64,000 bases of DNA from Candidatus Yanofskybacteria bacterium. Its GTDB lineage: Bacteria; Patescibacteriota; Minisyncoccia; 2-02-FULL-40-12; GWA2-44-9. The DNA lies in contig JADZAY010000019.1 in assembly GCA_020852375.1 (NCBI GenBank), positions 15,319 through 79,318 of the forward strand. The letters run 5' to 3'. Position 1 is the stretch's first letter. Every line of letters starts with the position of its first letter. The notes under the pieces were generated by a model. That model was given only the letters and a program-made list of their open reading frames with translations. It did no database searches and had not been told where the DNA came from. Made by a program: the position numbers and the translations under genes. Shown piece after piece: positions 11,570 to 26,540 of this stretch.

Positions 11570-12202
11570 ATGATCGTCTCAAAGCAGCTCGAACGAATGA
11601 ACGCGGTGGTCGTATTTCGGAGTGACGGGTTTTCTGTCCCCGATAATGCGGCATTCTCGGCGCTGTATCCCGGTCCCGCCGGGAAGGGGATGCGATTCGT
11701 TGAGGATCAGATCACGCGAACGTCCGTGCTGAGCGTTCCGTCGTTGCGACTTGTTTTCGCGGTTGAGGGGAATCGCTTTCGAGTCGACGACGATTCGGGT
11801 CAGGATCCCGGATCGAGCCCGCTACCTGATCATTTCCGGCAAGCTCTCGAAGGGCTCTTTCCTGGGGCGCGTCCGGAAAGCTACGGGTTTAATTTTGATG
11901 TGTACTTCCGTTTCGGGTCGGTTCTTCCGAGCGGTGCAGTATTTCGCTCTTTTGTGAGCGACGAGATCTTTCGCGAACGAGATCTACGCGATGTCGGTGT
12001 TCAGTTCACGATGGAGCGAAATGGCGGCGCGCAGCGCGAGACCTATTTCATAAAATTTGTCGATCCGCTCGAGATCGCGGTGCACGCGAATATCCATGTG
12101 CCGTCTGAGGATATACCGAGCAGTGACGGGCTTCGAGCTCGGTTGGCAGCGGCGTACAATGATATCGAAGGAGTTGTGAATACGCTCAAGCTAAACGCAT
12201 GA
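11570..12202 (+). CDS. Hypothetical protein of 210 aa
   Basis: Tightly linked in the array, and its stop overlaps the next start as ATGA. Third-position GC is high. Confidence 0.5.
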   Translation: MIVSKQLERMNAVVVFRSDGFSVPDNAAFSALYPGPAGKGMRFVEDQITRTSVLSVPSLRLVFAVEGNRFRVDDDSGQDPGSSPLPDHFRQALEGLFPGARPESYGFNFDVYFRFGSVLPSGAVFRSFVSDEIFRERDLRDVGVQFTMERNGGAQRETYFIKFVDPLEIAVHANIHVPSEDIPSSDGLRARLAAAYNDIEGVVNTLKLNA

Positions 12203-13774: not shown

Positions 13775-14587
13775 ATGGACGATCATCATGTTCGAATTCA
13801 TCGTTTGGACGACGTGCTCAAGGACGCATACCATGAGCGGGTCGCCTACAACGCGATGCCGCGCGGTGAGCACTTCCGAGATCTCTCCACGGTCATTATT
13901 ACGGCGGTTCGCGGCGATCGGAGAGAGACGAGGAGTATGAATTGTCCGAAGTGCAATCACCTAATCACCTATGAGCACTTCAGTTCGAACGGGTTCCATC
14001 CGATGGTCGTGGAGTCATGGAAGCGTATGATTCGTCCCATGAACCAGCCTATCGTCGAGGTGGTTTCTTCGGGGTATGAGGTCGGCGACGCCTACGAACA
14101 CTCCATTGAGGCGGTTCTGAACAATCCCGATCTTGCGAAATTCAAGTACATTCTCTTTATTGAGGACGATATGATCATCCCGTGGATGCCTGGTACGCGT
14201 GGCCCTTTGTTCGAGCTGTATCGGCATATGGATACTTACGATGTTGCCGGGGCACTGTATTGGACGAAGGGCGAGGTTTCCATGCCGCTTATTTTTGGTG
14301 ACCCTGCTCGCGGTACGGATAACTACGAGGCGCTTACGAATTGGGATTCGGGGGATGTGGTCGAGTGTAACGGTACCGGCATGGGATTTACGCTTTTCAA
14401 GATGGATTTGTTCAAGGACGCGCGCGTTGACCGTCCCTGGTTCCATACACTTCAGAATGTGGACGAGGGTGGAATGACGCAGGACCTGTATTTCTATCGA
14501 AAGATTCGGAGGCTGGGGTATCGTATTTGTGTTGACACATCGATCAAGTGCGGGCATCTCGATGTGAGAACGGGGCAGGTGTATTGA
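13775..14587 (+). CDS. Glycosyltransferase-like protein, GT-A fold, family 2-like
   Basis: The N-terminus TVIITAVRGDRR is Rossmann-like. A DxD-like motif FIEDDMI is present, as is a C-terminal QDLYFYRKIRRLGYRI resembling the GT2 ED..R...G.RI motif. The start lies 2 nt after the upstream stop. Confidence 0.5.
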   Translation: MDDHHVRIHRLDDVLKDAYHERVAYNAMPRGEHFRDLSTVIITAVRGDRRETRSMNCPKCNHLITYEHFSSNGFHPMVVESWKRMIRPMNQPIVEVVSSGYEVGDAYEHSIEAVLNNPDLAKFKYILFIEDDMIIPWMPGTRGPLFELYRHMDTYDVAGALYWTKGEVSMPLIFGDPARGTDNYEALTNWDSGDVVECNGTGMGFTLFKMDLFKDARVDRPWFHTLQNVDEGGMTQDLYFYRKIRRLGYRICVDTSIKCGHLDVRTGQVY

Positions 14588-14588
14588 T

Positions 14589-15563
14589 ATGGCGCGATCG
14601 CATAACCTAATCCTTCTCGCGGCGCTCGGGGGCATATTGGGTGTTGGTCTTGTCGCGCTCGCCGCGCAAAATCGTTCGTTGCGCAGTCAGCTTGCGGCGC
14701 ACAGCGCCTCTAGCTCGTTTGAGCTTTTGAATCCGGTGAAGGCGCTGAAGATCAATCGGCACTTCATCATCGACTTCTCTGATCTTCGAAAGAGCTTCGA
14801 TCGAATTGTGAAGAAGTATCCCCAGAAAACGTACCTCTATTTCATGTATCTGAGCAATGGTGGCTGGGTTGGAGTGAACGAGCGGGATCAATTTGTTGCG
14901 GCGAGCCTCATCAAAGTTCCGCTCGCGATGGCATTCTATAAGGCGGTGGAAGATGGCCGTATCAATCTTTCCCAGGAATACGCACTCGCGGAGACCGATC
15001 TTGATGATGGATTCGGTGATCTGTATAAAGTCGGTGCCGGTAAGAGCTATTCCGCTCGTGACCTGCTCCGCATCATACTGTCTCGTTCGGATAACACCGC
15101 CATGCGCGCCGTGACGACTCTTCTGCGGAGGGTTGGTATCGATGATCCGCTCAGTGATGTGTACGCCGAGTTGGGGTGGGAGGTGTTGCCTCCGCTGGTC
15201 GCAAATGGAGATGCTTCGGGCATTAATTATTCGGAGATCAGTGTGAAAGTGCTCTCGAATATGCTTCTCGCACTCTATAATGCTACCTATATCAGCAGCG
15301 AACACTCGCAGGAGATCCTCAAGGATCTGAGCGAATCAGAATTTAATGATTCGATTCCTGGGGGGGTTCCCAATGGCACTATTGTTGCGCACAAGATAGG
15401 GGCTTCGGCAAATGACCAGACATTCTCCGACTGTGGCATCGTGTATGTTCCCGGAAGACCCTATCTCCTGTGTCTTGGCTCGAACGGAGGAGATCAGGAT
15501 CGGGCGAACCGTTTCATGGCGGAGGTTTCACGCGCGGTATTCGATTTTGTTACTACCCACTAA
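14589..15563 (+). CDS. Membrane-anchored serine hydrolase of the class A beta-lactamase / PBP-like family
   Basis: The SxxK motif is AASLIKVP, the SDN motif is SRSDNTA, and a KTG-like motif is HKIGAS. An N-terminal TM anchor is present. Confidence 0.65.
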   Translation: MARSHNLILLAALGGILGVGLVALAAQNRSLRSQLAAHSASSSFELLNPVKALKINRHFIIDFSDLRKSFDRIVKKYPQKTYLYFMYLSNGGWVGVNERDQFVAASLIKVPLAMAFYKAVEDGRINLSQEYALAETDLDDGFGDLYKVGAGKSYSARDLLRIILSRSDNTAMRAVTTLLRRVGIDDPLSDVYAELGWEVLPPLVANGDASGINYSEISVKVLSNMLLALYNATYISSEHSQEILKDLSESEFNDSIPGGVPNGTIVAHKIGASANDQTFSDCGIVYVPGRPYLLCLGSNGGDQDRANRFMAEVSRAVFDFVTTH

Positions 15564-15566
15564 TCT

Positions 15567-16076
15567 ATGAAGCTTGATCTTGCGTGCGGACAGCAAAAGC
15601 GGCCGGGATTTCACGGTGTCGATATCACTCCTGGTTCCGGAGTTGATACGGTGTGGGATCTGGAGCGTTTTCCGTGGGAACCGTTTGCGGACAACTCGGT
15701 CGAGGAGATCCATGTGTCTCACTATGTGGAGCATACGAAGGACCTCATGAAGTTCATGGATGAGGTGTGGCGGATCGCCGCACCGGATGCGAAGGTGACC
15801 ATCGTGGGTCCGTACTACACCAGTATTCGTGCATGGCAGGATCCCACCCACACGCGGGCGATCTCGGAGGCGACCTGGGCATACTTCAACAAGGACTGGA
15901 GGGTCGCGAATAAGCTCGATCACTATCCCATTCGTTCCCATTTTGCCATCGACCGAATTTTGACGTTCTTCAACCCGCCGTGGGACAAGAAGAGCGATGA
16001 GGCAAAGCAGTTCGCCCAGCAGCATTACTTCAATGTGGTTTCAGACATTCTGGTCGAACTTCGCGCAATCAAATAG
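15567..16076 (+). CDS. Class I SAM-dependent methyltransferase, Methyltransf_11-like
   Basis: Motif I reads MKLDLACGQ, matching the LDLGCG pattern. The protein is 169 aa, a typical size. Confidence 0.65.
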   Translation: MKLDLACGQQKRPGFHGVDITPGSGVDTVWDLERFPWEPFADNSVEEIHVSHYVEHTKDLMKFMDEVWRIAAPDAKVTIVGPYYTSIRAWQDPTHTRAISEATWAYFNKDWRVANKLDHYPIRSHFAIDRILTFFNPPWDKKSDEAKQFAQQHYFNVVSDILVELRAIK

Positions 16077-16077
16077 C

Positions 16078-16554
16078 ATGCGGCGACACATTGGGCGTGT
16101 CGTGGTGCTTTGCGTCGCGCTTGTGATCGTTTTTGCGGTGTTGCGTGGTGAGCATGACGACGGCGCGTCCCAGGAGCTTCGAGGGTTCGCTATCCGGCCT
16201 CTGGCGCAGGGATTCAGTCTCGGGGGTGAGGATGGTGGTCGGAAATCAGTTCTCCACGACATTCTTTCGGGATATCCCGAACCCGCGAAATTCCGCTCCG
16301 TCGACATTCCTGGCGGGTCGTTTGCGATCGCAGAGTCCTGTCGAGACGCTTATATCGCTGTTATCCTCTATGCTCGGAAGATCGATTACCGAAAGGAGCC
16401 GGCAGCGGCCGCGCTTAATCAGGCATATCCCTGCACGCCCGGGAAGCGTTTCGTGATAACTGTGGACGCGGAGTCGTATGGACTTCGTGCGGGGACATAT
16501 TATATTGTCGTAGCCGATCAGGGTGTTTCCGGTGCTTGGTACAATCCTCGATAA
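16078..16554 (+). CDS. Hypothetical membrane-anchored protein of 158 aa
   Basis: An ATG (MRRHIGRVVVLCVALVIVFAVL) lies 1 nt after the upstream stop, and a TM helix follows. The track ORF begins earlier in an overlapping frame. Confidence 0.5.
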   Translation: MRRHIGRVVVLCVALVIVFAVLRGEHDDGASQELRGFAIRPLAQGFSLGGEDGGRKSVLHDILSGYPEPAKFRSVDIPGGSFAIAESCRDAYIAVILYARKIDYRKEPAAAALNQAYPCTPGKRFVITVDAESYGLRAGTYYIVVADQGVSGAWYNPR

Positions 16555-16563
16555 ATACGCATC

Positions 16564-17022
16564 ATGAAAGCTGTCACTATTCGAATGCCAACGATGAGTC
16601 AGCTGCGGAGTATGTTTTTGATCGGTGCTGCTGTCTTGGGTGCGATTTTTTTCCTTCTGCCCGCCGCTCAGCGCTTTGTATCGGTGCGTGCAGAAACGCT
16701 TCGTGGTTGGCAGGCCGTATATCTGGTGAATGGGGACCTGTATATCGGGCGCATTCGATCGCTTGATGACAGGAGCCTTGAGCTGAAAGACGCATACTAT
16801 GTTTCACTCGGGTCGAATGATGGTGGACCGGGGCAGGCCGCAAGCGTAAAGCTGCAGAGCGGCGAATTCCGGACGGTGTCGCTTGTTCGGTGGGGGTTTA
16901 GCCAGCCGCTGGTCTCCTTTGGGGTGCTGCAGATCGAGCGATCATCAGTGCTTTTTTGGGAATCGCTGAGCGGTGATGCGGAAGTGGTGAAACAGGTCGA
17001 AGAGGCTCGGAAAAAACAGTAA
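16564..17022 (+). CDS. Hypothetical membrane-anchored protein of 152 aa
   Basis: An N-terminal TM segment MFLIGAAVLGAIFFLLPAA is present. Third-position GC is high. Confidence 0.5.
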   Translation: MKAVTIRMPTMSQLRSMFLIGAAVLGAIFFLLPAAQRFVSVRAETLRGWQAVYLVNGDLYIGRIRSLDDRSLELKDAYYVSLGSNDGGPGQAASVKLQSGEFRTVSLVRWGFSQPLVSFGVLQIERSSVLFWESLSGDAEVVKQVEEARKKQ

Positions 17023-17049: not shown

Positions 17050-17883
17050 ATGAGTCTTTTTGCGCGCACGGGTCTTATTCTACAGGGAGTTGCCATTTTT
17101 GCCTGCCTAATACTGGTGCTCGCGTGGCTTGTTCCCGATGATGCTCTCGGGTACATCGCGAGTTCCTCCTCGTTCATTCTTTTCGGAGGTGGAGTTGATA
17201 GCATCGCTGGGACGGGGTCTTCGTCGACGTTTTTCAATACGAGTGCGGGCGGCCAGGCTGTTGCAGGAGTCGCATCATCCTCATCGTTCATTGCATGTAA
17301 GGGCGCATTGTGCGATCAGCCGGCTGCCGGCACTCCCACGTCATTGACCCTTACCATCGAATCCGGCGGGACGGTGAGCTTCGGGACGCTGGGCTTTCAG
17401 TCCCGTGTGACCCGGACGACAAATCTCCGTATAGACACCACGAATGCAACGGGGTACCAGTTGAGTGCCGGGAGACAGCGTGCGATCGCAAACGTGACCC
17501 TTGCGTCAAGCGCGAATCCGGGGAGCGTCTACATTGACGATATCGGGGGCGGCATCGATGTGTTCGGTGGCCTTGGCGGTTCATGCGGTGCCGCGCAGTG
17601 GCCAGCTGCGTCGGGAGCCTCGACCGGTCTCGGGTTTACCGTATGGGCGGCGAGCATCAATAAAGACACGACGTGCTGGGGGGCCGGATCGACCGAAAGC
17701 GCGATCGAAAACCGCTATGCGGCATTGCAGGCGTCATCGGCTGCATCCGCATTCTTGAGCGCGACTTCGAATAGTCCGAACCCCTCATTTGCATCGGTGG
17801 GCTATAGCCTTGAGATCACGCAGCTTCAGCAGGCGACAGGGTATAGTGGGCAGGTCATCTTTACGGGAACGACTGCTCCATGA
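17050..17883 (+). CDS. Ser/Thr/Gly-rich membrane-anchored protein; paralogue A of the protein encoded at 20191..20958
   Basis: The protein has an N-terminal TM helix. It shares blocks with the 20191 protein: RAIANVTLAS.ANPGS, TGLGFTVWA, CWGAGS, YAALQASSAASA, and a C-terminal YSGQVIFTGTTAP. Its stop overlaps the Wzy_C gene start as ATGA. Confidence 0.6.
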   Translation: MSLFARTGLILQGVAIFACLILVLAWLVPDDALGYIASSSSFILFGGGVDSIAGTGSSSTFFNTSAGGQAVAGVASSSSFIACKGALCDQPAAGTPTSLTLTIESGGTVSFGTLGFQSRVTRTTNLRIDTTNATGYQLSAGRQRAIANVTLASSANPGSVYIDDIGGGIDVFGGLGGSCGAAQWPAASGASTGLGFTVWAASINKDTTCWGAGSTESAIENRYAALQASSAASAFLSATSNSPNPSFASVGYSLEITQLQQATGYSGQVIFTGTTAP

Positions 17884-20135
17884 CGCACGACGGCATCCAG
17901 GGCAGTGTGCAAGCGCTCGGGCTGATCGATCGAGTCCTCATACGGGTGATCCGAAGCGGCCTTTTCCTGACCGCGTTTATCCCGCTGGTCATTTTTCAGC
18001 GTACGTTTTCCCCGTTCTTCTTTGGAAAAGAAATACTCTTCCGCTTGTTGATCGAGCTTCTCGCGCCGCTCTATCTCTTCGTTGTCCTGCGTCATCCTGT
18101 CATGCGGCCGCCGCGTTCACTTCCGCTTTTGCTTCTGTGGGTGAGTGTTGCCGTTGCTATTATTGCGGGGCTTGCCAGCGCAAACCCGCAGCTCAGTTTT
18201 TTTGGGACCTGGGAGCGGATGGGCGGGGTGTTTACCCTCCTGCATGGCGCTCTGCTTGTGACTATGCTCTCTGGGATGTTCCAATCGCGAGGGGACTGGC
18301 GGACATTATTCGGATTATCGGTGGGAGTCGCGCTGGTATCAGCGTTGTACGGAATGCTCCAACTGACGACTATTCCGGGTATCGCGGGTGCGACGAGCAG
18401 GTTTCGAATCTTTGGGACGATTGGGAACCCTGCCGCTTTTGCGGGGTATCTTCTCGTAAATGTGTTTCTGGGACTCGCGCTTCTGCCGTCATCTTCGCTC
18501 CGCGCGCGAACTGCCATTGGTGTGAGCACGCTGGTGCTCGGCGGCGGCATCCTACTGAGTGCGGTCAGAGGCGCGGTAGCGGGCCTTATCGCCGGGCTTT
18601 GCTTTCTTGGATACCTGAAGTGGGGCGGCGTGAGCGCGCTGTTTCGGGGTCGAAGGATGGTCATGCTTGTTGTGGGGGCACTGCTGCTCGGTGGAGTGTT
18701 GTTCTTCTTTTCGAACACTGACCACTGGACTCGCCTTGTCCGATTCGATCTTTTCTGGGAGACGATCGGCCAGCGTCTGGTCGTTTGGTGGATGGGCATC
18801 CGCGGCGCCGCACAGCATCCGATGCTCGGGTGGGGACCAGAGCAGTTTCCGTCGCTGTACAGCGTCTGGTTCGATGCGCGCCTTTTTACGAACGCCCAAG
18901 GTGTCATATTCGATCGGGCACATAACATCATTGTCGATATCGCTTCGACGCAGGGGCTTATTGGTCTCACTGTGTATGCCGCGCTTCTGTGGGCCACATT
19001 CATTCGTCTCCCTGGCGTGCTGAAGGCGGGATTCGTGGCGGTTCTTGGTCACCTACTGTTCTTTTTCGATCTTCTTCCGACGGCGCTACTTGTTGGATAT
19101 CTCATCGCTTATGCGGCGCACCGGGGTGATAGCGCCCGGTGGCGGATGCCTACCGGGAAACGGGTGCAGGGGGTCAGTACGGTTGTTGTGGTAGCGCTTT
19201 CTGTTGGAGGATTGCTCCTGAACATCGGATCGCTTACCAGCAACCTCGCGGTGGCGCGCTCATATACCGCCTTCGCCACCGGGAATGGAGTGGATGGGAT
19301 TCGTTTCGGTGAGGTTGCGATGGGACGAGAACGGATGTTTTTGCAGGATGTTCGGAGAAAATACACTGAAGGTCTGGTTGGATATGCGTTTCGCGCCTCT
19401 CCGGAAGAGCGGGAGGCCATCGGCGGTTCTCTGAAAAATCTCCTCGGAGCGCTTCGGGAAGAGATTGATCATACGCCTGACGATTATGCCGGATACCTCT
19501 ATCTGTATAAAGCGTGCCGCGCGAATCGGATGCTCTTTTCGGATGCATACGGCGACAGTGCGTGTTCTCCTGATGTGCTCACTGAGGGGATACGGCGGTT
19601 ACCGCGGGCTCTTCCGCTCCAAGACGAGCAGTACAATGGCCTCATGGAGGCGGGCAAGTTTTCCGACGCGATTATCGTAGTATCAGGCATTCGCGCGGCA
19701 CTTGAGCAGCCGTCGTCCGAGACGTTGTTCATGCTTGGGGCTGCGCGTGTATCGATGGCTGTTGCGCGTGTGCCGCACGACCCTTCTGCCCTCCAAGAGG
19801 GGATGTGGGAGATCCAGTCCGCGATCGACGGCGGGTATCGAGATGCAGGAGCGGTGCAGGCGGCGGCTCAATTATTGGAGCGTTCTCGTGAATTCTCGTC
19901 GGAGCTCGCACTTTTTAGCGCGCTTGCCCGTTTCGAGCCGCGCTATCTGGTTCCGTTGGCGTATACGCATTTGATCATCGGAGAAAAGGACGCTGCGCAT
20001 CAAATAGCCGATCAAGCACTGGCGTTGCCTGACGGCGTCCTGAGCCCGGCCGGGTTTCAGGTGCTGGCAGAGCTCTATCGTCTTCTGGGGGATACTGCCG
20101 GCAGGAGCCGGGCATTTCTCCGGAGCACCCCATGA
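17880..20135 (+). CDS. O-antigen ligase / Wzy_C-domain polytopic membrane protein (PglL/PilO/WaaL-like glycosyl or oligosaccharyl transferase family) with a soluble C-terminal domain of about 330 aa
   Basis: Multiple TM helices are present. The hallmark motifs are RFRIFGTIGNPAAFAGYLL and the periplasmic loop GWGPEQF (the GxGxGxF pattern), along with R..VWWMG. Confidence 0.7.
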   Translation: MTHDGIQGSVQALGLIDRVLIRVIRSGLFLTAFIPLVIFQRTFSPFFFGKEILFRLLIELLAPLYLFVVLRHPVMRPPRSLPLLLLWVSVAVAIIAGLASANPQLSFFGTWERMGGVFTLLHGALLVTMLSGMFQSRGDWRTLFGLSVGVALVSALYGMLQLTTIPGIAGATSRFRIFGTIGNPAAFAGYLLVNVFLGLALLPSSSLRARTAIGVSTLVLGGGILLSAVRGAVAGLIAGLCFLGYLKWGGVSALFRGRRMVMLVVGALLLGGVLFFFSNTDHWTRLVRFDLFWETIGQRLVVWWMGIRGAAQHPMLGWGPEQFPSLYSVWFDARLFTNAQGVIFDRAHNIIVDIASTQGLIGLTVYAALLWATFIRLPGVLKAGFVAVLGHLLFFFDLLPTALLVGYLIAYAAHRGDSARWRMPTGKRVQGVSTVVVVALSVGGLLLNIGSLTSNLAVARSYTAFATGNGVDGIRFGEVAMGRERMFLQDVRRKYTEGLVGYAFRASPEEREAIGGSLKNLLGALREEIDHTPDDYAGYLYLYKACRANRMLFSDAYGDSACSPDVLTEGIRRLPRALPLQDEQYNGLMEAGKFSDAIIVVSGIRAALEQPSSETLFMLGAARVSMAVARVPHDPSALQEGMWEIQSAIDGGYRDAGAVQAAAQLLERSREFSSELALFSALARFEPRYLVPLAYTHLIIGEKDAAHQIADQALALPDGVLSPAGFQVLAELYRLLGDTAGRSRAFLRSTP

Positions 20136-20190
20136 CGGTTATCCACAGCCGAATGGGCTGCTCGTGGTGTAAAATAAGAGCATCAACACT

Positions 20191-20958
20191 ATGGATACAC
20201 CGACGCGCAGTCCAAAGGAGTTCGCGGTGGTTGCGGTCATCGGTTTCGCGCTCTTCTTCGGCTGGTCGCTGTATGACTCTGGTTTGTACCAAGCGCTCTT
20301 CCGTCCGGTAACTGTTTCGGCGGCTTCTTCGAGTTCGACGGCGACACTCTCGGTTACCGTTGGCTCAAATATCACCCTCACCATCGATGGGACCTGTGAT
20401 AATGGAAAAACGAACTGCGATTCGAACGCGAGCGCGAGCTTCGGCACGCTCACGGCCCTGACCAGCAATAACGCCAATACGCGTGTGAAGTTTGTTGCGA
20501 ATGATACTGCTACGCTTGCGATCGGGCGAAAGCGGGCGATCTCGAACGTAACTCTTGCATCGGATGCTAGCCCCGCCTCGATCAACATTTCAGATCTCGG
20601 AAGCGGGACCGGAACCGCGAATGCGGGGCCGAAGGCATTCACGGGTTGCTCGTCTCCGGTGACGGCCGCATGGTCGGAGGGCGTTTCAACGGGGCTTGGA
20701 TACACGGTTTGGGCAACTTCTACAGGGGGCGACAAGTCGGCCGGCTGCTGGGGCACGGGGACCGATTTCACTGGCGGGAGTGCGGCGGGGAACTTGTACG
20801 CAGCTCTTCAGGCCTCCAGCTCCGCGTCTACCGCGCTCACAACCTCTGTTACGGGTACCTACTATGCGTCGATCGGCTACCGTCTCGCAGTCACCGCGAC
20901 GCAAGCAGCAACCACCTATACCGGTAATGTCATCTATACCGGTACAACAACCCCCTAG
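20191..20958 (+). CDS. Ser/Thr/Gly-rich membrane-anchored protein; paralogue B of the protein encoded at 17050..17883
   Basis: The N-terminal TM segment is FAVVAVIGFALFFGWSLY. Blocks shared with the 17050 protein are RAISNVTLASDASPAS, TGLGYTVWA, CWGTGT, YAALQASSSAST, and a C-terminal YTGNVIYTGTTTP. Confidence 0.6.
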   Translation: MDTPTRSPKEFAVVAVIGFALFFGWSLYDSGLYQALFRPVTVSAASSSSTATLSVTVGSNITLTIDGTCDNGKTNCDSNASASFGTLTALTSNNANTRVKFVANDTATLAIGRKRAISNVTLASDASPASINISDLGSGTGTANAGPKAFTGCSSPVTAAWSEGVSTGLGYTVWATSTGGDKSAGCWGTGTDFTGGSAAGNLYAALQASSSASTALTTSVTGTYYASIGYRLAVTATQAATTYTGNVIYTGTTTP

Positions 20959-20997
20959 CGGCGTTGTACTGCGCAATGCGCACGACAGGCGGCGCAG

Positions 20998-21026
20998 TTG
21001 GCTGTTTTTCTGTACGGTGCTATAGT
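20998..21026 (+). promoter_or_regulatory. Sigma70-like promoter TTGGCT-N17-TATAGT; the ATG lies about 7 nt downstream, giving a near-leaderless mRNA
   Basis: The -35 element is at 20998-21003 and the -10 element at 21021-21026. The ATG at 21033 follows. Confidence 0.45.
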
Positions 21027-21032
21027 GCCAGC

Positions 21033-21932
21033 ATGATGAGGTCCACGAGATTTTTGAGCGGCAGTATCGTTCTCTTCGCTGCTTTTTTGTGCGCATCATT
21101 TGCTGCCGCCGCTCCGGTCGGTGTTACCGTTGCTCCGATCCGTTATGCAGTGAATGTGGACCCTGGAGCATCGTATGAAGATGTCATTACGGTTGCGAAT
21201 CCGAACGATTTTGTCCTTCGGGTGCAACCAGAGTTTCAAGATTTCCGCGTGACCGATGGCAATACGATCCAGTGGGTTCCGTCCGATGTCGAGAACCCCT
21301 ATCGGATGGTCGATTGGATCGAGATCGATCGGAGCATTGTCACGCTGAAGCCCCACGAGGAGGCTCGAATTCCGTTCACCATCCGTGTTCCACGGGCGGC
21401 AACTGCCGGTGGGCGGTATGCCGCGATCTTTTTTACGGCGGTGCTGAACAACCAAGGGGAGAATGTTGGTGCAGTCCCTCGGGTCGGTGCTCTCGTGATC
21501 CTGAACGTGAACGGGGATCTTACGCGGACTGGGAATCTTACGTCTTTGGATATTCCTCGCTTTGTTGCTGGCGGTCCCGTGAGTATGAAGGTTGGGTATT
21601 TGAACACGGGAACTACGCATTATGAGAGCAATGTATCAGTCAGTATTCGGGGTCTCATTGGGAAGACCACCGTTGTTCAGGGGGAGCGGCGTTTCGTGTA
21701 CCCGAATATCGAGCGAACGATCACGGCGCAGTGGAGTCGAGCATTCCCGTTCGGCGTGTATCGTGTTACCGCAACGGCGGTTGATGGGAGTGGTGTTTCT
21801 CAAATAATGGAGCGTTGGGTGGTCGCGGTGCCGTTCCGTCTCGTGATACCGGCTGCGCTGATATTCTTCGCACTCTTCTTCGGACTGCGGTGGTTCCGAT
21901 CGAAATTTAAGATCGTACGAGCTTCGGTTTAG
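21033..21932 (+). CDS. Secreted surface protein with a signal peptide and a C-terminal TM anchor, about 300 aa
   Basis: The N-terminus is MMRSTRFLSGSIVLFAAFLCASFAAAAP. The C-terminal hydrophobic helix PAALIFFALFFGLRWFRSKFK is followed by basic residues. The middle appears beta-rich. Confidence 0.55.
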   Translation: MMRSTRFLSGSIVLFAAFLCASFAAAAPVGVTVAPIRYAVNVDPGASYEDVITVANPNDFVLRVQPEFQDFRVTDGNTIQWVPSDVENPYRMVDWIEIDRSIVTLKPHEEARIPFTIRVPRAATAGGRYAAIFFTAVLNNQGENVGAVPRVGALVILNVNGDLTRTGNLTSLDIPRFVAGGPVSMKVGYLNTGTTHYESNVSVSIRGLIGKTTVVQGERRFVYPNIERTITAQWSRAFPFGVYRVTATAVDGSGVSQIMERWVVAVPFRLVIPAALIFFALFFGLRWFRSKFKIVRASV

Positions 21933-22855
21933 TGTGTGGCTGTATGAATATCCTGGGGCGCACGATCACGGTCTGTGCAGTCATGTTTTTCGTGTCGGTT
22001 CCCGCTTTTGCTGCAACCGGGTCGCTTGATGTACGAGTGGTTCCATTTTCTCCGACGCCAACCCCATCGTCGACACCCACTCCGACGGCATCTCCGCTAT
22101 CTGGGGGGTCTGTGAGCGGAGACGTAAGTTGGAGTCGCATTGCGGCGATAGAGCTCAATGGTGTTGCGTTTCCGCGCGCGACCGTTCATCTGCTGAAGGA
22201 CGGCGTTGACGTCGCGCGAAGCGATGCGGACGACGAGGGGCGCTTTCGCATTGCACTATCGGGACTCGCGGGCGGGTCGTATCTGTTCGGTTTGACGGCA
22301 GTTGCGAATGACGGCACAAGAACCGATCCGTATTCGTTCGTAGCTATTCCCATTCTTGGATCCACGACTCATATATCGAATATCCTCCTTCCGCCTCTTG
22401 TCGTGGCGGAGGATAGCCAAGCGGCTGGCGGAACGGGGGCCTGGCTGCGGGGATGGACCGCCCCGGGAGCTCAGATCGAAGTAACGGTTGATGACGGTGT
22501 GTGGCAAGGCATCGCATTTGTCCATAATGACGGATCATACCGAGCTGAAGTTATTCCGAACGATCAACGTTCCGGTGAGCACGTGCTCCGCGTTCGGGCC
22601 ATCGTGGGGCGCATGGGGTCGCCGTCGTCTCGCGAGATCCGATTTGTGGTGGGCGAGGCGCTGCCTTCTGTGTGTGGTACAGGTGTGGACACGGCTGATA
22701 TTAATGATGACGGGAGGGTAGATCTGGTGGATTTTTCCATCCTATCTTTTTGGTACGAGAAACCGATCGATGCCGGGGCTCGTGCTGATCTGAATTGCGA
22801 CGGCTCGGTCACACTCGCCGACGTGAGTATATTGGCTTTCTTTTGGACGGGATGA
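21932..22855 (+). CDS. Secreted protein with a C-terminal type-I dockerin domain
   Basis: A signal peptide is present. Two calcium-binding dockerin repeats are visible: DINDDGRVDLVDFSIL and DLNCDGSVTLADVSIL. The stop overlaps the next start as ATGA. Confidence 0.65.
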   Translation: MCGCMNILGRTITVCAVMFFVSVPAFAATGSLDVRVVPFSPTPTPSSTPTPTASPLSGGSVSGDVSWSRIAAIELNGVAFPRATVHLLKDGVDVARSDADDEGRFRIALSGLAGGSYLFGLTAVANDGTRTDPYSFVAIPILGSTTHISNILLPPLVVAEDSQAAGGTGAWLRGWTAPGAQIEVTVDDGVWQGIAFVHNDGSYRAEVIPNDQRSGEHVLRVRAIVGRMGSPSSREIRFVVGEALPSVCGTGVDTADINDDGRVDLVDFSILSFWYEKPIDAGARADLNCDGSVTLADVSILAFFWTG

Positions 22856-23721
22856 CCTCCTCTCGTTTCATTGCTCTCTGTGCGGGTGTCCTGCTTGGAG
22901 TTCTCCTGAGCCCCCTGCGGGGACATGCAGCAGAGCTGATCCTTGTCCGGGATGGCTCTTCGGGGTCGGGAGGCGTTACGGTGCGCGTCGTGGTCAAGCC
23001 GGAGGAGCCCGTGAACGCCCTTTCGGGTGAGTTGCGATATGACCCCGCGCTGTTGAAGGTTGAAGATGTAAATGCTGCCAACTCGGTCATCAGCCTTTGG
23101 ACGCGGGCCCCAGCGGAGAACTCCGAGGGGGTGATCGTTTTTGCGGGAGCAATTCCCGGAGGACTTACGCCTGCAGTGGCGGTGAACGCGGAGGTGTTCC
23201 GGGTACGCTTTTCTACTCGTTCTGCGGGTGCGACGAGTCTGCGCATGAGCGACCTCGTGGCGTACCTACACGGTCCGAATGCTCAGCGCGATGTCGTTCG
23301 GACCGCGCCGCTCTTATTGGATCTTACGCGTCCAGCAAGCGCATCGGAGCCGCTTATGCTCGACTTTTCTCCGCCAGAGCCGTTTGTGGTCCGTTTGGTG
23401 AAGAGCGTGGAGCTGATGAACGCGGCGTCGGTGCTCGTCTTTCAGACTGCCGATAAGGGTTCCGGTGTCGTTTCATACCAGGTTCGGGAGCGACGGTTCG
23501 GGATTTGGAGCGATTGGCGTGAAGCTCAAAGTCCGATGCGGATATCCGGTATCCACCTCTTGAGTGCATACGAGATTAAAGCGGTGGATGCTGTCGGGCA
23601 CGAGTATATTGCCCGGTTCACTCCTCCCCGACTGGAGGCCCTTTGGACGATCGGGGCTTCGCTCGGAGAGAAGATCTGGCACATCATGCGTTCGGCCGTT
23701 CGCTGGCTTCGTGTGTGGTGA
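22852..23721 (+). CDS. Secreted protein with a cohesin-like domain
   Basis: The signal peptide is MTSSRFIALCAGVLLGVLLSPLRGHAA. The segment GVTVRVVVKP...LSGELRYDPALLKVEDV...GVIVFAGAIPGG fits the cohesin pattern (V.V.V...F.L.YDP..L...). Translationally coupled to the dockerin gene. Confidence 0.55.
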   Translation: MTSSRFIALCAGVLLGVLLSPLRGHAAELILVRDGSSGSGGVTVRVVVKPEEPVNALSGELRYDPALLKVEDVNAANSVISLWTRAPAENSEGVIVFAGAIPGGLTPAVAVNAEVFRVRFSTRSAGATSLRMSDLVAYLHGPNAQRDVVRTAPLLLDLTRPASASEPLMLDFSPPEPFVVRLVKSVELMNAASVLVFQTADKGSGVVSYQVRERRFGIWSDWREAQSPMRISGIHLLSAYEIKAVDAVGHEYIARFTPPRLEALWTIGASLGEKIWHIMRSAVRWLRVW

Positions 23722-23752
23722 TGCGCACTGGACATATGGTATACTAGAGGGT

Positions 23753-24427
23753 ATGTTCACCCATCAGCTCATCCTAGGAGTAGGCGTGCTGGTTAGTATG
23801 CTTGCGGTATTGATCGGATTCGGATTCGGGGCTGAAATAGTTTCCGTTGCCATTGCGACAAACCTTCTCCTTATCAGTACCTTTGGGGCGAAACTGATCT
23901 CTATTTTCGGGTTCGTCAGTAATATTGGAAACATTTTCTATGCGACGACATTTTTTGCTGTTCAACTCTTGCTTGAGCGATATGGCAGGCGGGAAGCAGT
24001 TCGGGCGGTGTGGGCCGGCGTGTTCGCTCTCGTGGTGTTCGTGATCATGGGGTAGTTGGCTCTGGATCTGGGCGAGATCGTTGTGTCTGGCGATGTCGAT
24101 AAAGCGATTACCACGATATTCCAAGGCGGCATCAGACTCGGAATCGCTATCGGTATACCATTTTTGATTGCTCAACACATTCAGATCGCGATTTTTGAGA
24201 CGCTGAAGCGTTCGACGGGTAAACGACTGCTTTGGGTGCGGAGTCTCGCGGCGACGGTCGGCGGGCAATTCATCGATAGCATTCTCTTCTTCTCGATCGC
24301 ATTCGTGGGAATGCTTCCCGATCCGCTGGTACTTCAGATGATGGTCGCGGGATTTCTGGCAAAGACAGGGTTCGGTGTATTGAGCGTACCGCTCCTCTAT
24401 GTAAGTCGGAGAGCTCGGCATGCATAA
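23753..24427 (+). pseudogene. yhhQ: YhhQ/DUF165 (vitamin-uptake-transporter family) queuosine-precursor transporter, interrupted by an in-frame TAG at 24053-24055
   Basis: The track ORFs 23564..24055 and 24056..24427 are in the same frame, separated only by the TAG. The C-terminal half carries the family signature LWVRSLAATVGGQFIDSILFFSIAF. The ATG at 23753 is preceded by the extended -10 element TGgTATACT, which makes the mRNA leaderless. TAG is used as a true stop codon elsewhere in the window. Confidence 0.5.
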
Positions 24428-26540
24428 TATGGCGCGCTATTTTGTTTTCTGGCAGAAGATCGCATCGCGGCTCTGGCAGCAGCTTGTTCGGAGGCGCGCC
24501 TTTTTTGGTATGACGGTACTAGGACTTGTTCTTGCGGCGAGCATATTTCTGATCGAGCCGAAGATTGTCGGGCTCGTGACCCGGAACGAATTTCTCCAGT
24601 ACAGAGAGCGAGTCCGGCAGCATGCGCGCGAGCAGACGGTGCCGCTTCTTGATGGTGCGCGTGAGATCGCGCGATCAGATGCGCTGATCCATTTTATTCG
24701 TGATGGAGATGTTTCGAGCATTGCTCTGCTTGCCCACCGCGAGGGAGAGAAGCGTGGTATCAATGCGGTTCTTGTCGTGGACCGGAACGGCGTCGCGCTC
24801 TCCCGATCATATGCGGTGACACAGTACGGCGACTACACATTTCAGGCATCTCCCTGGGGCGACGCACTCTCCCGAGGGGAAGAGGTGAGTGGCATCGATC
24901 GGGGGGTGGCGCATCCGCTGGTGATGTTTGCTGGTGTCCCGGTGATGGACAACGGAGAATTTGTCGGCGCTGTGGTTACAGCATTCCCGTTATATGATGA
25001 CTACGCTAGCGTGTTCCGGTCTACACATCTCCGGGGTGGGGAGCACGTCGCGTTCTATCGGCGAGGGATCGGGTTGACCGGAGCGAGCTTTACCGACCAA
25101 GCGGATCGGAGTGCGATCGCTGCGTACCTGAACTCCGGGAGTGACCTTACGACGTGTTGCAGCGATCCGGAGCTTTTGCGTATTCACGACGATGTGTACC
25201 TTATCGGCAATATCGTCTTTCCGGGGGTGCGAGAGCCGGCTGGCGGGATGATCCTCCTTCATCCGGTGCAGTCACGCGGGCAGCGTCTCGGTATGGTTTT
25301 GGGGATGACAGTTGCGCTGCTTGCCGCTCTTTCATATCTTGCGTGGCGGAGGCGTCTAACCCTGCTGGATGTTCGGTGGGCGCTTTTCTTCTGTGCGCTT
25401 TTCTTTTTCTTTGCGCTCCAAATAATCCTGACCGTCTTTCTTACGCGCCAGGGTTTCGTGCGGGTCATGGATGTGCCCGAGACGACTTCAATCTACAACT
25501 CGACCATGAGTTTTGGTCCCGAGACCGCTGTGTTCGAACTGAACTCAGAACACCGGATCGCGATCAATGTCGAGACTGGGGGAGAGCGGGTGAACGCTAT
25601 CCGAGCCGTGGCCTCTTTCGACCCGTCACGGGTCGCCGCTGTCGGTGTCGAGTCAACAGATTCCCTGTGTGAGAAGGGGATTGTGCTCGAAAGAACGATC
25701 GACAACGAGAGTGGCACCGTTTCTGTCTCTTGTGGATTACTGGGAGCTGAATTTTCCGGCACCGATGTCTTTGTTCGGCTCATTCTTCGTCCCCTCAAGG
25801 CGGGTGACTTTACGCTTCGTTTTGCGGAAGGGACTCAAGTGCTCGCGAATGATGGGCTGGGGACCAGCGTCTTGCGCTCGTGGACGGATAGCGGGTATAC
25901 GGTAATCGCCGAGCGCTCGAGTGCTTCCAGCGGTAAGATCCCATTCACCATGTTCTCTCCAACACATCCCAATCGTGAGCGCTGGTATTCTTCAAGGGAT
26001 GTGGGCGTCTCATGGCTTTCGCGGCCTGGCATCCGCTACACCTACGCTGTCGATGCTACCGGCAGTGAAGTACCGGTGCCTGTCGGCGACTCGTCTCTCG
26101 AGGTTGTCGGGTTATCAGACGGAGCACATATGATCCGACTGTCTGCCTGGAAAGACGGCATCAGAACGGAGACAGCAGAAATCCGCCTAAAGATTGATGG
26201 GACTCCCCCCGAAGGTTTTATGGTCAGGGCGAGCGACACGAGTGTCGTCGCTGGGGATGTTGTTCGCATCGATGCTGCGGCAGCCGACAATCTAAGTGGG
26301 TTGCAAAAGAGCACGTATGTTCAGGTAGACGATGGGGTCCTACTCCCTGTGCGGCTTCCGGTTTCTATACCGTTCACACGGAAGGGGGTGCATCAGGTGA
26401 TGGTTCGTGTGTTTGATAATGCAGGAAACCATGCGGATGCTACGACCGAAATACATGTTCGGTCGCGGTCCGGTTTCATAGACCGCTTTTTGAACGAACT
26501 CCTTCCGACCATTTCGGGGTTCGCCTCCTCATTCCTTTGA
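24420..26540 (+). CDS. Large membrane protein of 706 aa: an N-terminal TM helix, an extracytoplasmic sensor-like domain, a second TM helix, and a C-terminal region with a second cohesin-like module
   Basis: TM helices occur near residue 30 and near residue 300 (VLGMTVALLAALSYLAW, FFFALQIILTVFL). The C-terminal segments AVASFDPSRVAAVGVE and GTDVFVRLILRPLKAGDFTLRF resemble a cohesin. Confidence 0.55.
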   Translation: MHNMARYFVFWQKIASRLWQQLVRRRAFFGMTVLGLVLAASIFLIEPKIVGLVTRNEFLQYRERVRQHAREQTVPLLDGAREIARSDALIHFIRDGDVSSIALLAHREGEKRGINAVLVVDRNGVALSRSYAVTQYGDYTFQASPWGDALSRGEEVSGIDRGVAHPLVMFAGVPVMDNGEFVGAVVTAFPLYDDYASVFRSTHLRGGEHVAFYRRGIGLTGASFTDQADRSAIAAYLNSGSDLTTCCSDPELLRIHDDVYLIGNIVFPGVREPAGGMILLHPVQSRGQRLGMVLGMTVALLAALSYLAWRRRLTLLDVRWALFFCALFFFFALQIILTVFLTRQGFVRVMDVPETTSIYNSTMSFGPETAVFELNSEHRIAINVETGGERVNAIRAVASFDPSRVAAVGVESTDSLCEKGIVLERTIDNESGTVSVSCGLLGAEFSGTDVFVRLILRPLKAGDFTLRFAEGTQVLANDGLGTSVLRSWTDSGYTVIAERSSASSGKIPFTMFSPTHPNRERWYSSRDVGVSWLSRPGIRYTYAVDATGSEVPVPVGDSSLEVVGLSDGAHMIRLSAWKDGIRTETAEIRLKIDGTPPEGFMVRASDTSVVAGDVVRIDAAAADNLSGLQKSTYVQVDDGVLLPVRLPVSIPFTRKGVHQVMVRVFDNAGNHADATTEIHVRSRSGFIDRFLNELLPTISGFASSFL

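Follow-up and report, generated by a model that had tools for sequence, protein, structure and literature searches.

A conserved Parcubacteria gene cluster combining pilin-like paralogues, a WxLIP-like anchor and a Wzy_C-family membrane protein

Genes of the locus and their conservation

The window analysed here is a 64-kb stretch of DNA from Candidatus Yanofskybacteria, an ultra-small groundwater bacterium. A sequence-only reading had singled out three tightly packed forward-strand genes, namely those for paralogue A (17050-17883), a Wzy_C-family protein (17880-20135) and paralogue B (20191-20958), as a candidate protein O-glycosylation module. The packing is as described, and the ATGA overlap of the start and stop codons of the A and Wzy_C genes at 17880-17883 is real. 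These three genes do belong together, but the unit is larger than had been proposed, being an operon of about eight genes. This eight-gene cluster, shared by six or more divergent loci of Parcubacteria, comprises the genes for a small membrane protein, for A and B, and for the Wzy_C protein and its TPR-like tail, together with those for a DUF916/WxLIP-like anchor, a Big_6-dockerin protein and a pair of cohesin-like proteins.

The first conserved cluster gene (16564..17022, +) codes for a 152-aa protein whose single membrane helix is N-terminal (residues 17-35) and for which a Pfam search returned zero matches; in loci L001 (E=2e-25) and L008 (E=7e-25) a homologue immediately precedes the A-type gene. 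Beyond A, Wzy_C, B and the anchor gene (20964..21932, +; probable true start at ATG 21033), the cluster continues with a gene for a secreted protein (21932..22855, +; probable start 21944) that combines a Big_6 Ig-like domain with a C-terminal type I dockerin (Pfam Big_6 E=1.8e-8 and Dockerin_1 E=3.9e-5, each above its own cut-off) and is kept in L001, L004, L005 and L008. The next gene (22795..23721, +) probably starts at ATG 22852, in an ATGA overlap with the preceding stop codon, and encodes a cohesin-like protein with a weak Pfam Cohesin match (E=0.0043, below cut-off). It has orthologues in the same four loci, several with a C-terminal membrane helix, and is likely the partner of the dockerin protein. 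Finally, a 706-aa protein (24420..26540, +) with Pfam matches combines a Cache-like and a cohesin-like region with a PKD domain and internal membrane helices; its residues 334-682 match the product of the gene next after the cohesin-like one in these four loci (E=1e-17 to 1e-22). It is the counterpart of the last conserved cluster gene elsewhere, separated in the window from the remaining cluster by an interrupted Vut_1 gene.

Upstream lie four forward-strand genes shared only with L001, coding for a GT-A-like protein (13775-14587; phmmer E=8e-50), a class-A beta-lactamase-like protein (14589-15563; Pfam Beta-lactamase2; phmmer E=6e-102), a small methyltransferase (15567-16076; Pfam Methyltransf_11; phmmer E=6e-100) and a 185-aa membrane protein (15997-16554; phmmer E=6e-26), the phmmer values being those against L001. 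In L004 and L005 they are missing from the region ahead of the cluster; possibly they are accessory to it, their membership being uncertain. The first had been read as a GT2-like enzyme, an assignment whose weak backing consists of an EDD motif resembling DxD and a weak match (E=0.4) to A197, a GT-A protein of viral origin.

Two gene orders are seen: A, Wzy_C, B, WxLIP, Big_6-dockerin, cohesin in the window, L004, L005/L006 and L008, and A, B, WxLIP, Wzy_C in L001 and L015. The position of the Wzy_C gene thus varies between loci, always within the cluster. The GC content of the cluster-bearing loci ranges from 33% to 57%. Further Wzy_C homologues and B homologues occur on contigs of matching size (7161, 5433 and 4442 bases). 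The retention of Wzy_C in one cluster across six independent, divergent loci and in two orders argues for a functional tie to A and B.

The paralogue family and its WxLIP-like partner

The paralogy of A and B is evident from a BLASTP alignment (43% identity over 186 residues, E=2e-20), in which all the shared blocks noticed earlier, RAI.NVTLAS, TGLG.TVWA, CWG.G, YAALQASS and Y.G.VI.TGTT.P, fall in register. Their description as Ser/Thr-rich and membrane-anchored likewise holds, with Ser+Thr making up 24% of A and 29% of B as against 10-16% of nine other window proteins, and with one N-terminal hydrophobic helix in each. This single helix, together with conserved Cys pairs, is consistent with export, and the topology of both is accordingly that of exported proteins; charged residues account for 8-9% of each. 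Paralogue A (277 aa; E=3.8e-53 against family profile A3) is of a large type; it has the membrane helix, three SSSxF motifs and a C-terminal pilin-like beta-sandwich ending TGTTAP, and the genes in its position in other loci encode 403-573 aa with extra N-terminal domains. Paralogue B (255 aa; 32 homologues) is of a small type, with an N-terminal membrane helix or signal followed by the pilin-like domain alone, ending TGTTTP.

The family of secreted proteins to which they belong is unnamed: 158 representative proteins match it at E<=1e-3, and a profile search of the 64-kb window recovered exactly two members, A and B. Among the matches listed, the domain of ~190 residues stands at, or a few residues from, the C-terminus, in proteins of either 200-250 aa or 400-2854 aa. 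Eight distinct loci extend far enough to reveal neighbours, and in all of them a family gene adjoins one for a membrane-anchored, two-Ig-domain DUF916/WxLIP homologue; even genes of distant family members (L011, L017) do so. One Parcubacteria clade has in its cluster, besides this pair, a Wzy_C protein ending in a TPR-like region, a dockerin protein and cohesin-like proteins. In the window the WxLIP-like partner is the product of 20964..21932, in which two Ig-like domains follow a signal peptide and the C-terminus has a membrane helix and a basic KFKIV tail. Pfam WxLIP_PGBD matches six of six anchor orthologues (best E=5.1e-7, below cut-off), a profile of these orthologues retrieves proteins annotated as DUF916 from Clavibacter (E=1.3e-18) and from E. 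faecium (E=1.9e-7), and all 11 tblastn matches of the anchor fall on DUF916/WxLIP-type genes, eight of them annotated DUF916. A and B were also considered as genuine WxL domains; the sequence homology was not significant (0/84 family members match PF13731; hhalign probability <3%).

A confident AlphaFold2 model of B (pLDDT 88.3, pTM 0.84) is an Ig-like beta-sandwich whose best structural matches, at modest scores, are the donor-strand-exchange fibre subunits TLP-1, CsuA/B and TasA; weak Pfam matches to DUF4402 and SCPU that recur in the family point in the same direction. The pairing of this pilin-like, C-terminal-domain family with a DUF916/WxLIP-like anchor places A and B in the context of a surface fibre or adhesin complex, and we regard it as very probable that the cluster is a conserved surface-complex operon of the WxL/WxLIP type. 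Between two strands of the B model sits an Ala/Ser loop (YAALQASSSAST, residues 203-214), which carries a 3-residue insertion and is restricted to the Parcubacteria proteins more closely related to A and B. Its pattern, LQAS(S/A)xAS(T), is nearly invariant and confined to this group, where Wzy_C is present in each locus that extends far enough to reveal neighbours. The LQAS(S/A)xAS loop is the best candidate for a glycan acceptor site on A and B.

The Wzy_C-family protein and its candidate acceptors

The 751-aa polytopic membrane protein encoded at 17880-20135 is, as had been recognised, a member of the Wzy_C family of the WaaL/PglL superfamily (Pfam Wzy_C, residues 217-366, E=1.7e-13, 51.1 bits against a cut-off of 31.7) and hence a putative glycan transferase. 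It bears the GWGPEQF motif noted previously (residues 317-323), and its best solved relative is a WaaL (7tpg, E=7.5e-7, residues 186-378). A C-terminal TPR-like domain of ~300 aa is predicted by a topology estimate to lie outside the cell, and the orthologues carry Pfam TPR matches. Five orthologues that are 28-33% identical have R230, R299, GWGPExF and D345..H348-N349 invariant, of which R230, R299 and H348 correspond to R215, R288 and H338 of E. coli WaaL and to R224, R298 and H349 of PglL (PMC3643930). Such invariance of the catalytic residues and of GWGPExF at this level of divergence is what an active enzyme would be expected to show. The PglL-specific motif (Pfam PglL_A) had zero matches in the protein. 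In a neighbour-joining tree, computed without support values, the cluster-linked Wzy_C proteins form one clade outside glycan-synthesis operons, sister to copies inside them, whose Wzy_C-TPR genes adjoin genes for GT4/GT2 enzymes, a flippase of Wzx type or a priming enzyme (Bac_transf); a role as polymerase or ligase could therefore be ancestral. None of the window ORFs scanned encodes a priming phosphoglycosyltransferase, a flippase or a GT4 enzyme, so a donor pathway has to be assumed.

Activity of the Wzy_C protein on the surface complex appears to us somewhat better than an even bet, and its most likely role there, as an inferred step, is that of a dedicated O-oligosaccharyltransferase on A and B; this specific assignment is tentative, falling a little short of even odds. 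The proposed O-glycosylation module is partly supported: it has in its favour the tie of Wzy_C to A and B, their exported topology and the invariant Arg/Arg/His, and against it the missing PglL_A motif, the donor-glycan genes not found nearby and the glycan-synthesis setting of the sister clade. The same motif's absence would suit a ligase or polymerase with a non-protein acceptor, for example an envelope glycopolymer on lipid or peptidoglycan, with A and B not among its substrates and the pilin-like/WxLIP complex binding, or embedded in, that glycopolymer. We consider this unlikely, albeit a serious contender: WaaL is a ligase acting on a glycolipid, the sister Wzy_C-TPR clade keeps company with GT4/GT2, flippase or Bac_transf genes, and Firmicutes WxL/WxLIP proteins are reported to bind peptidoglycan (PMC9772566, PMC10599100), which makes a wall-glycan partner plausible. 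However, the cluster-type clade resides outside glycan loci, within a secreted-protein cluster in six loci; the extracytoplasmic TPR-like domain suggests a protein partner; and the Ala/Ser loop is restricted to those A/B relatives whose known loci have Wzy_C.

GT39 enzymes O-mannosylate Ser/Thr-rich secreted proteins in Actinobacteria, and the window does contain the GT39 gene reported earlier (60216-61580, -; E=1.4e-51), with a strong PMT and PMT_4TMC match. A and B could be its substrates or unglycosylated, with Wzy_C otherwise employed in the operon. This is improbable, as the PMT gene, ~40 kb off, is unlinked to the cluster in the window, no PMT family was listed among the called genes of the retrieved loci with the cluster or other family members, and the strict conservation of Wzy_C within the operon would be left unexplained. 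More improbable still is a mainly non-catalytic, usher- or scaffold-like membrane platform for export or assembly of fibre subunits: the size and polytopic nature of the protein, its protein-binding TPR-like domain and the place of its gene between subunit genes would suit that function, but the active-enzyme pattern of its three catalytic residues and GWGPExF speaks against it.

We propose that this is probably a conserved, previously undescribed Parcubacteria operon for a sugar-decorated cell-surface fibre or adhesin. Taken as a whole, the reading that its core builds a WxL/WxLIP-like surface fibre or adhesin complex, together with its own Wzy_C-family glycan transferase, has in our estimate a probability of about 45%. 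Under this preferred reading, A and B would be exported, and Wzy_C would act on the outside of the membrane, transferring to their Ser/Thr residues an undecaprenyl-pyrophosphate-linked glycan pre-assembled by enzymes encoded elsewhere in the genome, with the TPR-like domain predicted to hold the protein substrate and the exposed LQAS(S/A)xAS(T) loop serving as putative acceptor. The WxLIP-like anchor would then keep the glycosylated subunits at the surface, probably via beta-strand complementation; these subunits may polymerise through donor-strand exchange, and the dockerin/cohesin pair would add one more displayed protein.

Comparison with known systems

The catalytic loop of the WaaL O-antigen ligase of Cupriavidus metallidurans (PDB 7tpg) aligns with that of the Wzy_C protein. 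Unlike WaaL, the latter has an extra membrane helix and the TPR-like tail, and its gene is not flanked by lipopolysaccharide genes; Patescibacteria are not known to possess an outer membrane or lipopolysaccharide. Also related are PglL, PilO (TfpO) and WsaB, the last of which has an S-layer protein of a monoderm bacterium as its substrate; all have a Wzy_C domain with the conserved Arg/Arg/His found here. The Wzy_C protein departs from PglL and PilO in the PglL_A motif, which it lacks, and in its neighbours, which are not type IV pilins; to our knowledge, the ~300-residue C-terminal TPR-like domain has no counterpart in either. As with pglL and pilO beside pilin genes, its gene adjoins those for Ala/Ser-rich secreted structural proteins, and the placement of an O-oligosaccharyltransferase gene beside its substrate gene is documented for both PglL and PilO, with 21 of 31 pglL genes adjoining pilin substrates (PMC3643930).

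The remainder of the cluster parallels the Firmicutes WxL/WxLIP (DUF916-DUF3324) clusters, such as Csc of Lactiplantibacillus and the Enterococcus Swp/Lwp/Duf loci. Both have the same minimal unit of a small domain-only protein, a large protein with the domain at its extreme C-terminus and a two-Ig-domain protein with a C-terminal membrane helix (PMC9772566, PMC10599100), and the anchor of the present cluster is a detectable DUF916/WxLIP homologue. The conserved motifs of the A/B family run in the WxL order. Its C-terminal motif, YxGxV(I/T)(Y/F)TxTxxP, equals in length what we take to be the WxL counterpart, YxxxLTWxLxxxP, which agrees with the enterococcal WxL alignment. In contrast to WxL proteins, A and B have neither Trp-x-Leu motif; there is no LPXTG protein in the cluster; the Wzy_C-TPR enzyme and the dockerin/cohesin proteins are not mentioned in the descriptions of WxL clusters (PMC9772566, PMC10599100); and the host belongs to the Patescibacteria, not to the gut Firmicutes.

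The donor-strand-exchange subunits that the B model resembles are the TLP-1a/b fibrils of pond water (9ikj, 9ikk), the archaic chaperone-usher pilins CsuA/B and CupE (SCPU family), and TasA. A and B are similarly secreted, with few charged residues and a beta-prone N-terminal segment after the signal. TLP-1 too is an unannotated bacterial protein family, known from structure alone (PMC11494351).

The gene cluster and its surroundings

The sequence-only reading had placed a Wzy_C-family membrane protein between two paralogous Ser/Thr-rich secreted proteins, A and B, and had proposed that the three constitute a protein O-glycosylation module. The three ORFs lie in the window exactly where that reading put them, with A at 17050-17883 (+, 277 aa), the Wzy_C gene at 17880-20135 (+, 751 aa; annotated ‘O-antigen ligase family protein’ in the source, a metagenome-assembled genome of Candidatus Yanofskybacteria, Parcubacteria) and B at 20191-20958 (+, 255 aa; annotated ‘hypothetical protein’). 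The stop codon of A and the start codon of the Wzy_C gene overlap as ATGA, the sign of translational coupling described in that reading, and a second ATGA overlap is found at 22852-22855, provided the cohesin-like gene uses its first plausible ATG. The genes in the window are packed with overlaps or short gaps. Promoter and terminator scans gave counts near chance.

The whole conserved unit is larger than this three-gene module. Traced via loci encoding B homologues, followed by a profile re-search of those loci, it comprises a small membrane protein, an A-type protein, the Wzy_C-family protein with its C-terminal TPR-like tail (henceforth Wzy_C-TPR), a B-type protein, a ~300-aa DUF916-like protein (the WxLIP-like protein; 20964-21932 in the window), a Big_6-dockerin protein, a cohesin-like protein and a second cohesin-like/PKD protein. 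The dockerin assignment stands at 24.2 bits for Dockerin_1 against a cut-off of 22.9, and the Cohesin match of the cohesin-like protein is weak (E=0.0043, 17.7 bits against a cut-off of 24.1). This gene order (A, Wzy_C, B, WxLIP-like, Big_6-dockerin, cohesin-like) is common to the window and the comparison loci L004, L005/L006 and L008; in L001 and L015 it is A, B, WxLIP-like, Wzy_C. That the Wzy_C gene shifts its position yet stays within the cluster supports a functional tie better than fixed adjacency would. Three more Wzy_C homologues lie on contigs whose lengths equal those of contigs carrying B homologues, and the contigs of two further homologues, P0055 and P0056, are too short to show their neighbours. 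The GC content of these divergent Parcubacteria loci ranges from 33% to 57%, and a scan of the genome collection with the alignment A1 of the family including A and B recovered one locus.

Several neighbouring genes deserve mention in their own right. Unannotated surface-type proteins are encoded upstream in the window (9992-11560, 12199-13773 and 15997-16554) and also in other loci (L001 337-2025 and 6813-7328; L008 3-857). Upstream proteins of 522 and 185 aa possess a common C-terminal domain (E about 1e-8) and a 524-aa protein is conserved ahead of the cluster in both L001 and L008; hence, the island of surface proteins may reach further upstream than the operon. A 169-aa Methyltransf_11-like protein (15567-16076, +) finds a match in L001 with E=6e-100 over 169 residues, a conservation far stronger than that of its neighbours, and the 3' end of its gene runs past 15997, where the next ORF was mechanically called to start. 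A 2003-aa ORF (3045-9056, -), for which no Pfam match was obtained at E<=0.01, could encode a surface protein of giant size or could simply be an artefact of the high-GC reverse frame. The cohesin-like gene is separated from the cluster's last conserved gene by one for Vut_1, a YhhQ-like vitamin or queuosine-precursor transporter (23564-24427, +), which is split by an in-frame TAG (24053-24055) into a first ORF covering profile positions 2-43 and a second, in the same frame, covering 56-151 (E=4.7e-20); this may reflect a pseudogene, an assembly error or read-through. Finally, a Spermine_synth domain is found in a polytopic membrane protein that adjoins the cluster in two unrelated loci (L004 2203-3903 and L017 2156-3646), lying in L017, which is without Wzy_C, between two WxLIP-like genes, and it may be an alternative accessory enzyme.

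The A/B family, its WxLIP-like partner and the predicted fold

The proposed paralogy of A and B was borne out at 43% identity over 186 residues (E=2e-20), with every conserved block named in the sequence-only reading falling into alignment, as was their Ser/Thr richness: these residues make up 24% of A and 29% of B, and nine other window proteins range over 10-16%. Charged residues constitute only 8-9% of A and B. Across the 64-kb window the family profile matches A and B and no others. Neither protein has a match in Pfam or NCBIfam, and a profile search recovered 158 relatives at E<=1e-3 among 1.84 billion representative proteins. Among the matches listed, the domain ends at, or a few residues before, the C-terminus. 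The family falls into a small class of ~200-250 aa, consisting of a signal peptide and the domain, and a large class of 400-2854 aa, in which other domains precede it. Every Parcubacteria locus has one small-type and one large-type member, proteins of 403-573 aa occupying the position of A in L004, L005, L008 and L015. Distant family members in L011 and L017 also adjoin a homologue of the WxLIP-like protein.

The export of A and B is supported by sequence features, namely their single N-terminal hydrophobic helices, the canonical signal peptides of distant family members and the conserved Cys pairs (153/186 in B and 179/209 in A, each protein having a second pair). The N-terminus of the Parcubacteria proteins additionally holds a conserved W(S/T)xYDNxxYF segment. 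The C-terminal ends read TGTTAP in A and TGTTTP in B. Type IV pilins were ruled out for A and B by the absence of the type IV prepilin leader and sortase-anchored proteins by the absence of LPXTG; both proteins end in Pro, whereas PilO/TfpO acceptors are type IV pilins modified at a C-terminal Ser/Thr. In A-type proteins a short motif occurs three times (ASSSSFxL, GSSSTFF and ASSSSFI) between the membrane helix and the domain, in A at residues about 30-90 (window 17140-17310). These A-type motifs, also considered in the homologues P0058, P0063, P0032 and P0019, matched no database family; distant large-type members carry a related repeat, S-x-N-Y-(K/R)-L, at the equivalent place, and one idea is that the motifs provide extra strands for complementation.

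The WxLIP-like protein displays a signal peptide, Ig-like domains, a C-terminal membrane helix (286-304) and a short basic tail. All six of its orthologues match PF06030 (best E=5.1e-7), two reported scores, 23.1 and 25.2 bits, lying just under the 27.3-bit cut-off. A profile of these orthologues matches annotated DUF916 proteins of Clavibacter (E=1.3e-18), where the alignment covers both domains, and Enterococcus faecium (E=1.9e-7). In a tblastn search of a plasmid collection, all 11 matches fell on DUF916-type genes, eight of them annotated as DUF916. The second domain has weak fn3-like matches and none to the DUF3324 (host-binding domain) family. Judged by these comparisons, the protein is a true relative of DUF916/WxLIP.

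In Firmicutes, the partners of such proteins are WxL domains; however, none of 84 A/B family members (23 + 61) matches PF13731 (WxL), and hhalign of the family against an enterococcal WxL profile gave a non-significant probability below 3%. Motif order alone agrees: an xFG is followed by GYxL here and by GWxL in WxL domains, and the C-terminal YxGxVxYTxTxxP corresponds to an equal-length WxL-containing motif, such that GYxL and (Y/F)TxT align with the two Trp-x-Leu motifs. As only this order is shared and homology is not significant by Pfam or hhalign, we set aside an assignment of A and B as WxL domains; they appear to occupy the WxL slot, and a remote homology to WxL is possible. On the Clavibacter phaseoli plasmid pCCh (L014 5218-5844), a ~208-aa hypothetical protein precedes an annotated DUF916 gene and weakly resembles the family motif at the C-terminal hairpin (TPTTVDAGDYSSTITLS) only. 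Such neighbours of DUF916 genes in Actinobacteria suggest that, beyond Firmicutes, the WxL slot is filled by still other unnamed proteins.

An AlphaFold2 model of B residues 41-255, built from 86 sequences (pLDDT 88.3, pTM 0.84), shows a beta-sandwich and supersedes an earlier full-length model from 23 sequences that was too poor (pLDDT 61.8). Its best structural matches are subunits of donor-strand-exchange fibres (TLP-1, CsuA/B and TasA); Foldseek returned the same list with marginal E-values, and weak Pfam matches to DUF4402 and SCPU, recurrent among family members, agree with them. Comparison of the family profiles with the sequences of solved structures gave chance-level matches only. As the structural scores are modest, we consider a pilin-like fold of the A/B domain likely and polymerisation of A and B an inference. 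The TLP-1a/b fibrils, of unknown origin, were solved directly from the 0.22 um filtrate of pond water, and donor-strand exchange is their mode of assembly (PMC11494351); they are plain protein, unlike the TLP ‘glycofibrils’ (10.1101/2025.09.30.679562), and thus lend no support to glycosylation of A and B.

The Wzy_C-TPR enzyme and its putative glycan transfer

Profile comparison upheld the Wzy_C assignment (PF04932 over residues 217-366, E=1.7e-13, 51.1 bits against a cut-off of 31.7), with the GWGPEQF motif at 317-323, and the orthologues likewise match this profile. The closest solved relative by sequence is the WaaL ligase 7tpg (E=7.5e-7). R215, R288 and H338, functionally needed in E. coli WaaL, are conserved in PglL as R224, R298 and H349 (PMC3643930). 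R230 (AVRGA), R299 (QRLxVW) and H348 (DRAHN) of Wzy_C-TPR align to the 7tpg WaaL sequence and are invariant across five orthologues at 28-33% identity. The PglL_A motif (PF15864), which separates PglL from WaaL, is absent from Wzy_C-TPR, a Pfam search at E<=0.1 giving Wzy_C alone; the equivalent region holds a conserved HNxFFFD with a spacing unlike that of PglL H400/E404/P406. The topology, an estimate from hydropathy, the positive-inside rule and the WaaL alignment rather than from a dedicated predictor, places the loop 279-358 outside, the Lys/Arg-rich loop 411-430 inside and, after one further helix, the C-terminal ~300 residues outside; Pfam TPR matches are seen in that region in orthologues.

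Typical PglL acceptor sites are Ala/Ser-rich low-complexity segments. Aligning the family shows a loop, YAALQAS(S/A)x(A)(S)(T), that is almost unchanged among the nearer Parcubacteria relatives of A and B and contains an insertion of three residues. It sits between two strands in the B model, and the candidate acceptor peptide of B centres on YAALQASSSAST. All loci of this loop-bearing group with enough flanking sequence to show the neighbours carry Wzy_C. In the more distant members YAG(F/I)Pxxxx replaces the loop, and the two with usable context (L011 and L017) both lack an adjacent Wzy_C. This correlation suggests the Ala/Ser loop as a candidate acceptor site. With respect to the donor, the window encodes an undecaprenyl-pyrophosphate phosphatase (BacA) and MurJ, and the window ORFs scanned include no priming enzyme, Wzx or GT4.

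The main rival to glycan transfer onto A and B is that the substrate of the Wzy_C enzyme is a glycan of the wall or one linked to lipid, which the enzyme would ligate or polymerise and the complex would bind, a reading that is possible though on balance unlikely. Wzy_C-TPR proteins are common in Patescibacteria, and three more distant ones (26-30% identity; P0216, P0219 and P0206) sit in classical glycan-assembly loci that are free of nearby family or WxLIP genes: one among GT4/GT2 genes, another next to a Wzx-type flippase, GT4s and methyltransferases, and the remaining one next to a Bac_transf priming enzyme. The cluster-type clade differs from a Wzy O-antigen polymerase, which sits in a Wzx/Wzy-dependent glycan-synthesis locus. 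PglL-type O-oligosaccharyltransferases are recognised by a gene beside that of an acceptor protein and outside lipopolysaccharide or glycan-synthesis loci (PMC3643930). Comparably, the Wzy_C gene adjoins the A and B genes in six loci, and in the six examined the cluster contains no glycosyltransferase, flippase or priming gene. In a neighbour-joining tree of the membrane domains, computed without support values, the cluster-linked proteins form one clade, sister to the glycan-locus clade. The simplest reading is a duplication after which one copy was dedicated to the surface-protein operon, with the lipid-linked donor made elsewhere in the genome. A lipopolysaccharide ligase was ruled out, as there is no lipopolysaccharide gene context. 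The Patescibacteria loci L019-L021 are complete-looking Wzx/Wzy-type loci with Wzy_C-TPR, a Bac_transf priming enzyme, GT4/GT2, a Polysacc_synt flippase and many methyltransferases; they raise the question of what the acceptor of such a pathway is in lipopolysaccharide-free Patescibacteria.

Two lesser rivals remain. A and B might be glycosylated instead by the GT39 mannosyltransferase, whose presence in the window, as proposed earlier, is clear (60216-61580, -; PMT E=1.4e-51, PMT_4TMC E=1.6e-42); this protein O-mannosyltransferase gives the genome another, independent enzyme that may glycosylate secreted proteins rich in Ser/Thr, encoded apart from the cluster that holds A, B and Wzy_C. Alternatively, the Wzy_C protein might be purely structural, a reading to be set beside its TPR-like tail on the one hand and its invariant arginines and histidine on the other. 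The O-glycosylation module itself stays plausible and withstands both refuting conditions set in the sequence-only reading, with A and B bearing the features of exported proteins and the cluster-linked Wzy_C proteins grouping apart from those of glycan-synthesis loci; however, it is unproven and too narrow for the larger operon.

A proposed fibre system and its relation to WxL clusters

We propose that A and B would be exported, after which Wzy_C-TPR would move a pre-assembled lipid-linked glycan onto their Ser/Thr residues on the outward-facing side of the membrane, its TPR-like domain holding the protein substrate. The WxLIP-like protein would then anchor the subunits, perhaps also chaperoning them via strand complementation; the subunits may polymerise, and the dockerin protein would dock onto the membrane-anchored cohesin-like protein. 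Of this scheme, the gene content and its conservation, the family relations, the catalytic residues and the predicted fold come from the analysis itself; transfer of glycan to protein, the acceptor loop, strand complementation and the pairing of cohesin with dockerin are inferred. More generally, we assign a probability of roughly 0.2 to the reading that the family and its WxLIP-like partner constitute a chaperone/anchor-assisted, donor-strand-complemented fibre system of outer-membrane-less bacteria, a counterpart of chaperone-usher pili and TapA-TasA, with the Firmicutes WxL clusters as a diverged branch and the Parcubacteria fibre O-glycosylated at the fixed Ala/Ser loop by a dedicated Wzy_C-TPR oligosaccharyltransferase. 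If true, this would represent a glycosylated attachment organelle of ultra-small episymbiotic bacteria and one plausible source type for unassigned environmental fibrils such as TLP-1.

Although Patescibacteria are highly abundant, most have never been cultivated, and their attachment structures are little known beyond type IV pili. The operon, being conserved, is a concrete candidate for encoding one, and its parts are open to testing: the two subunits and their anchor, the glycan transferase with a putative acceptor loop, and the dockerin/cohesin pair. Were Wzy_C-TPR a protein O-oligosaccharyltransferase, it would represent a new subclass that bears a TPR and whose natural substrate is defined, of interest for glyco-engineering. 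The components, viz., the Wzy_C superfamily, DUF916/WxLIP, pilin-like Ig folds and dockerin/cohesin, are known; what is new is their combination: a candidate-phyla-radiation bacterium has a cluster built in the WxL/WxLIP style, and the TPR-bearing Wzy_C enzyme in it belongs to a clade of its own. In full-text literature we found no paper pairing Patescibacteria or Parcubacteria with WxL or DUF916.

A Firmicutes WxL cluster is defined by a small and a large protein with a common C-terminal domain and one WxLIP protein (PMC9772566, PMC10599100). The architecture here matches it, with small and large domain-sharing proteins beside one WxLIP-like gene, and extends to a distant phylum a design described mainly in Firmicutes, mostly in gut-commensal species. 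AlphaFold work on WxL proteins predicted a DUF916 hairpin inserted beside the N-terminal WxL strand (PMC10599100), the same kind of strand complementation as in donor-strand-exchange fibres, and the operon would tie the WxL/WxLIP design structurally to those fibres.
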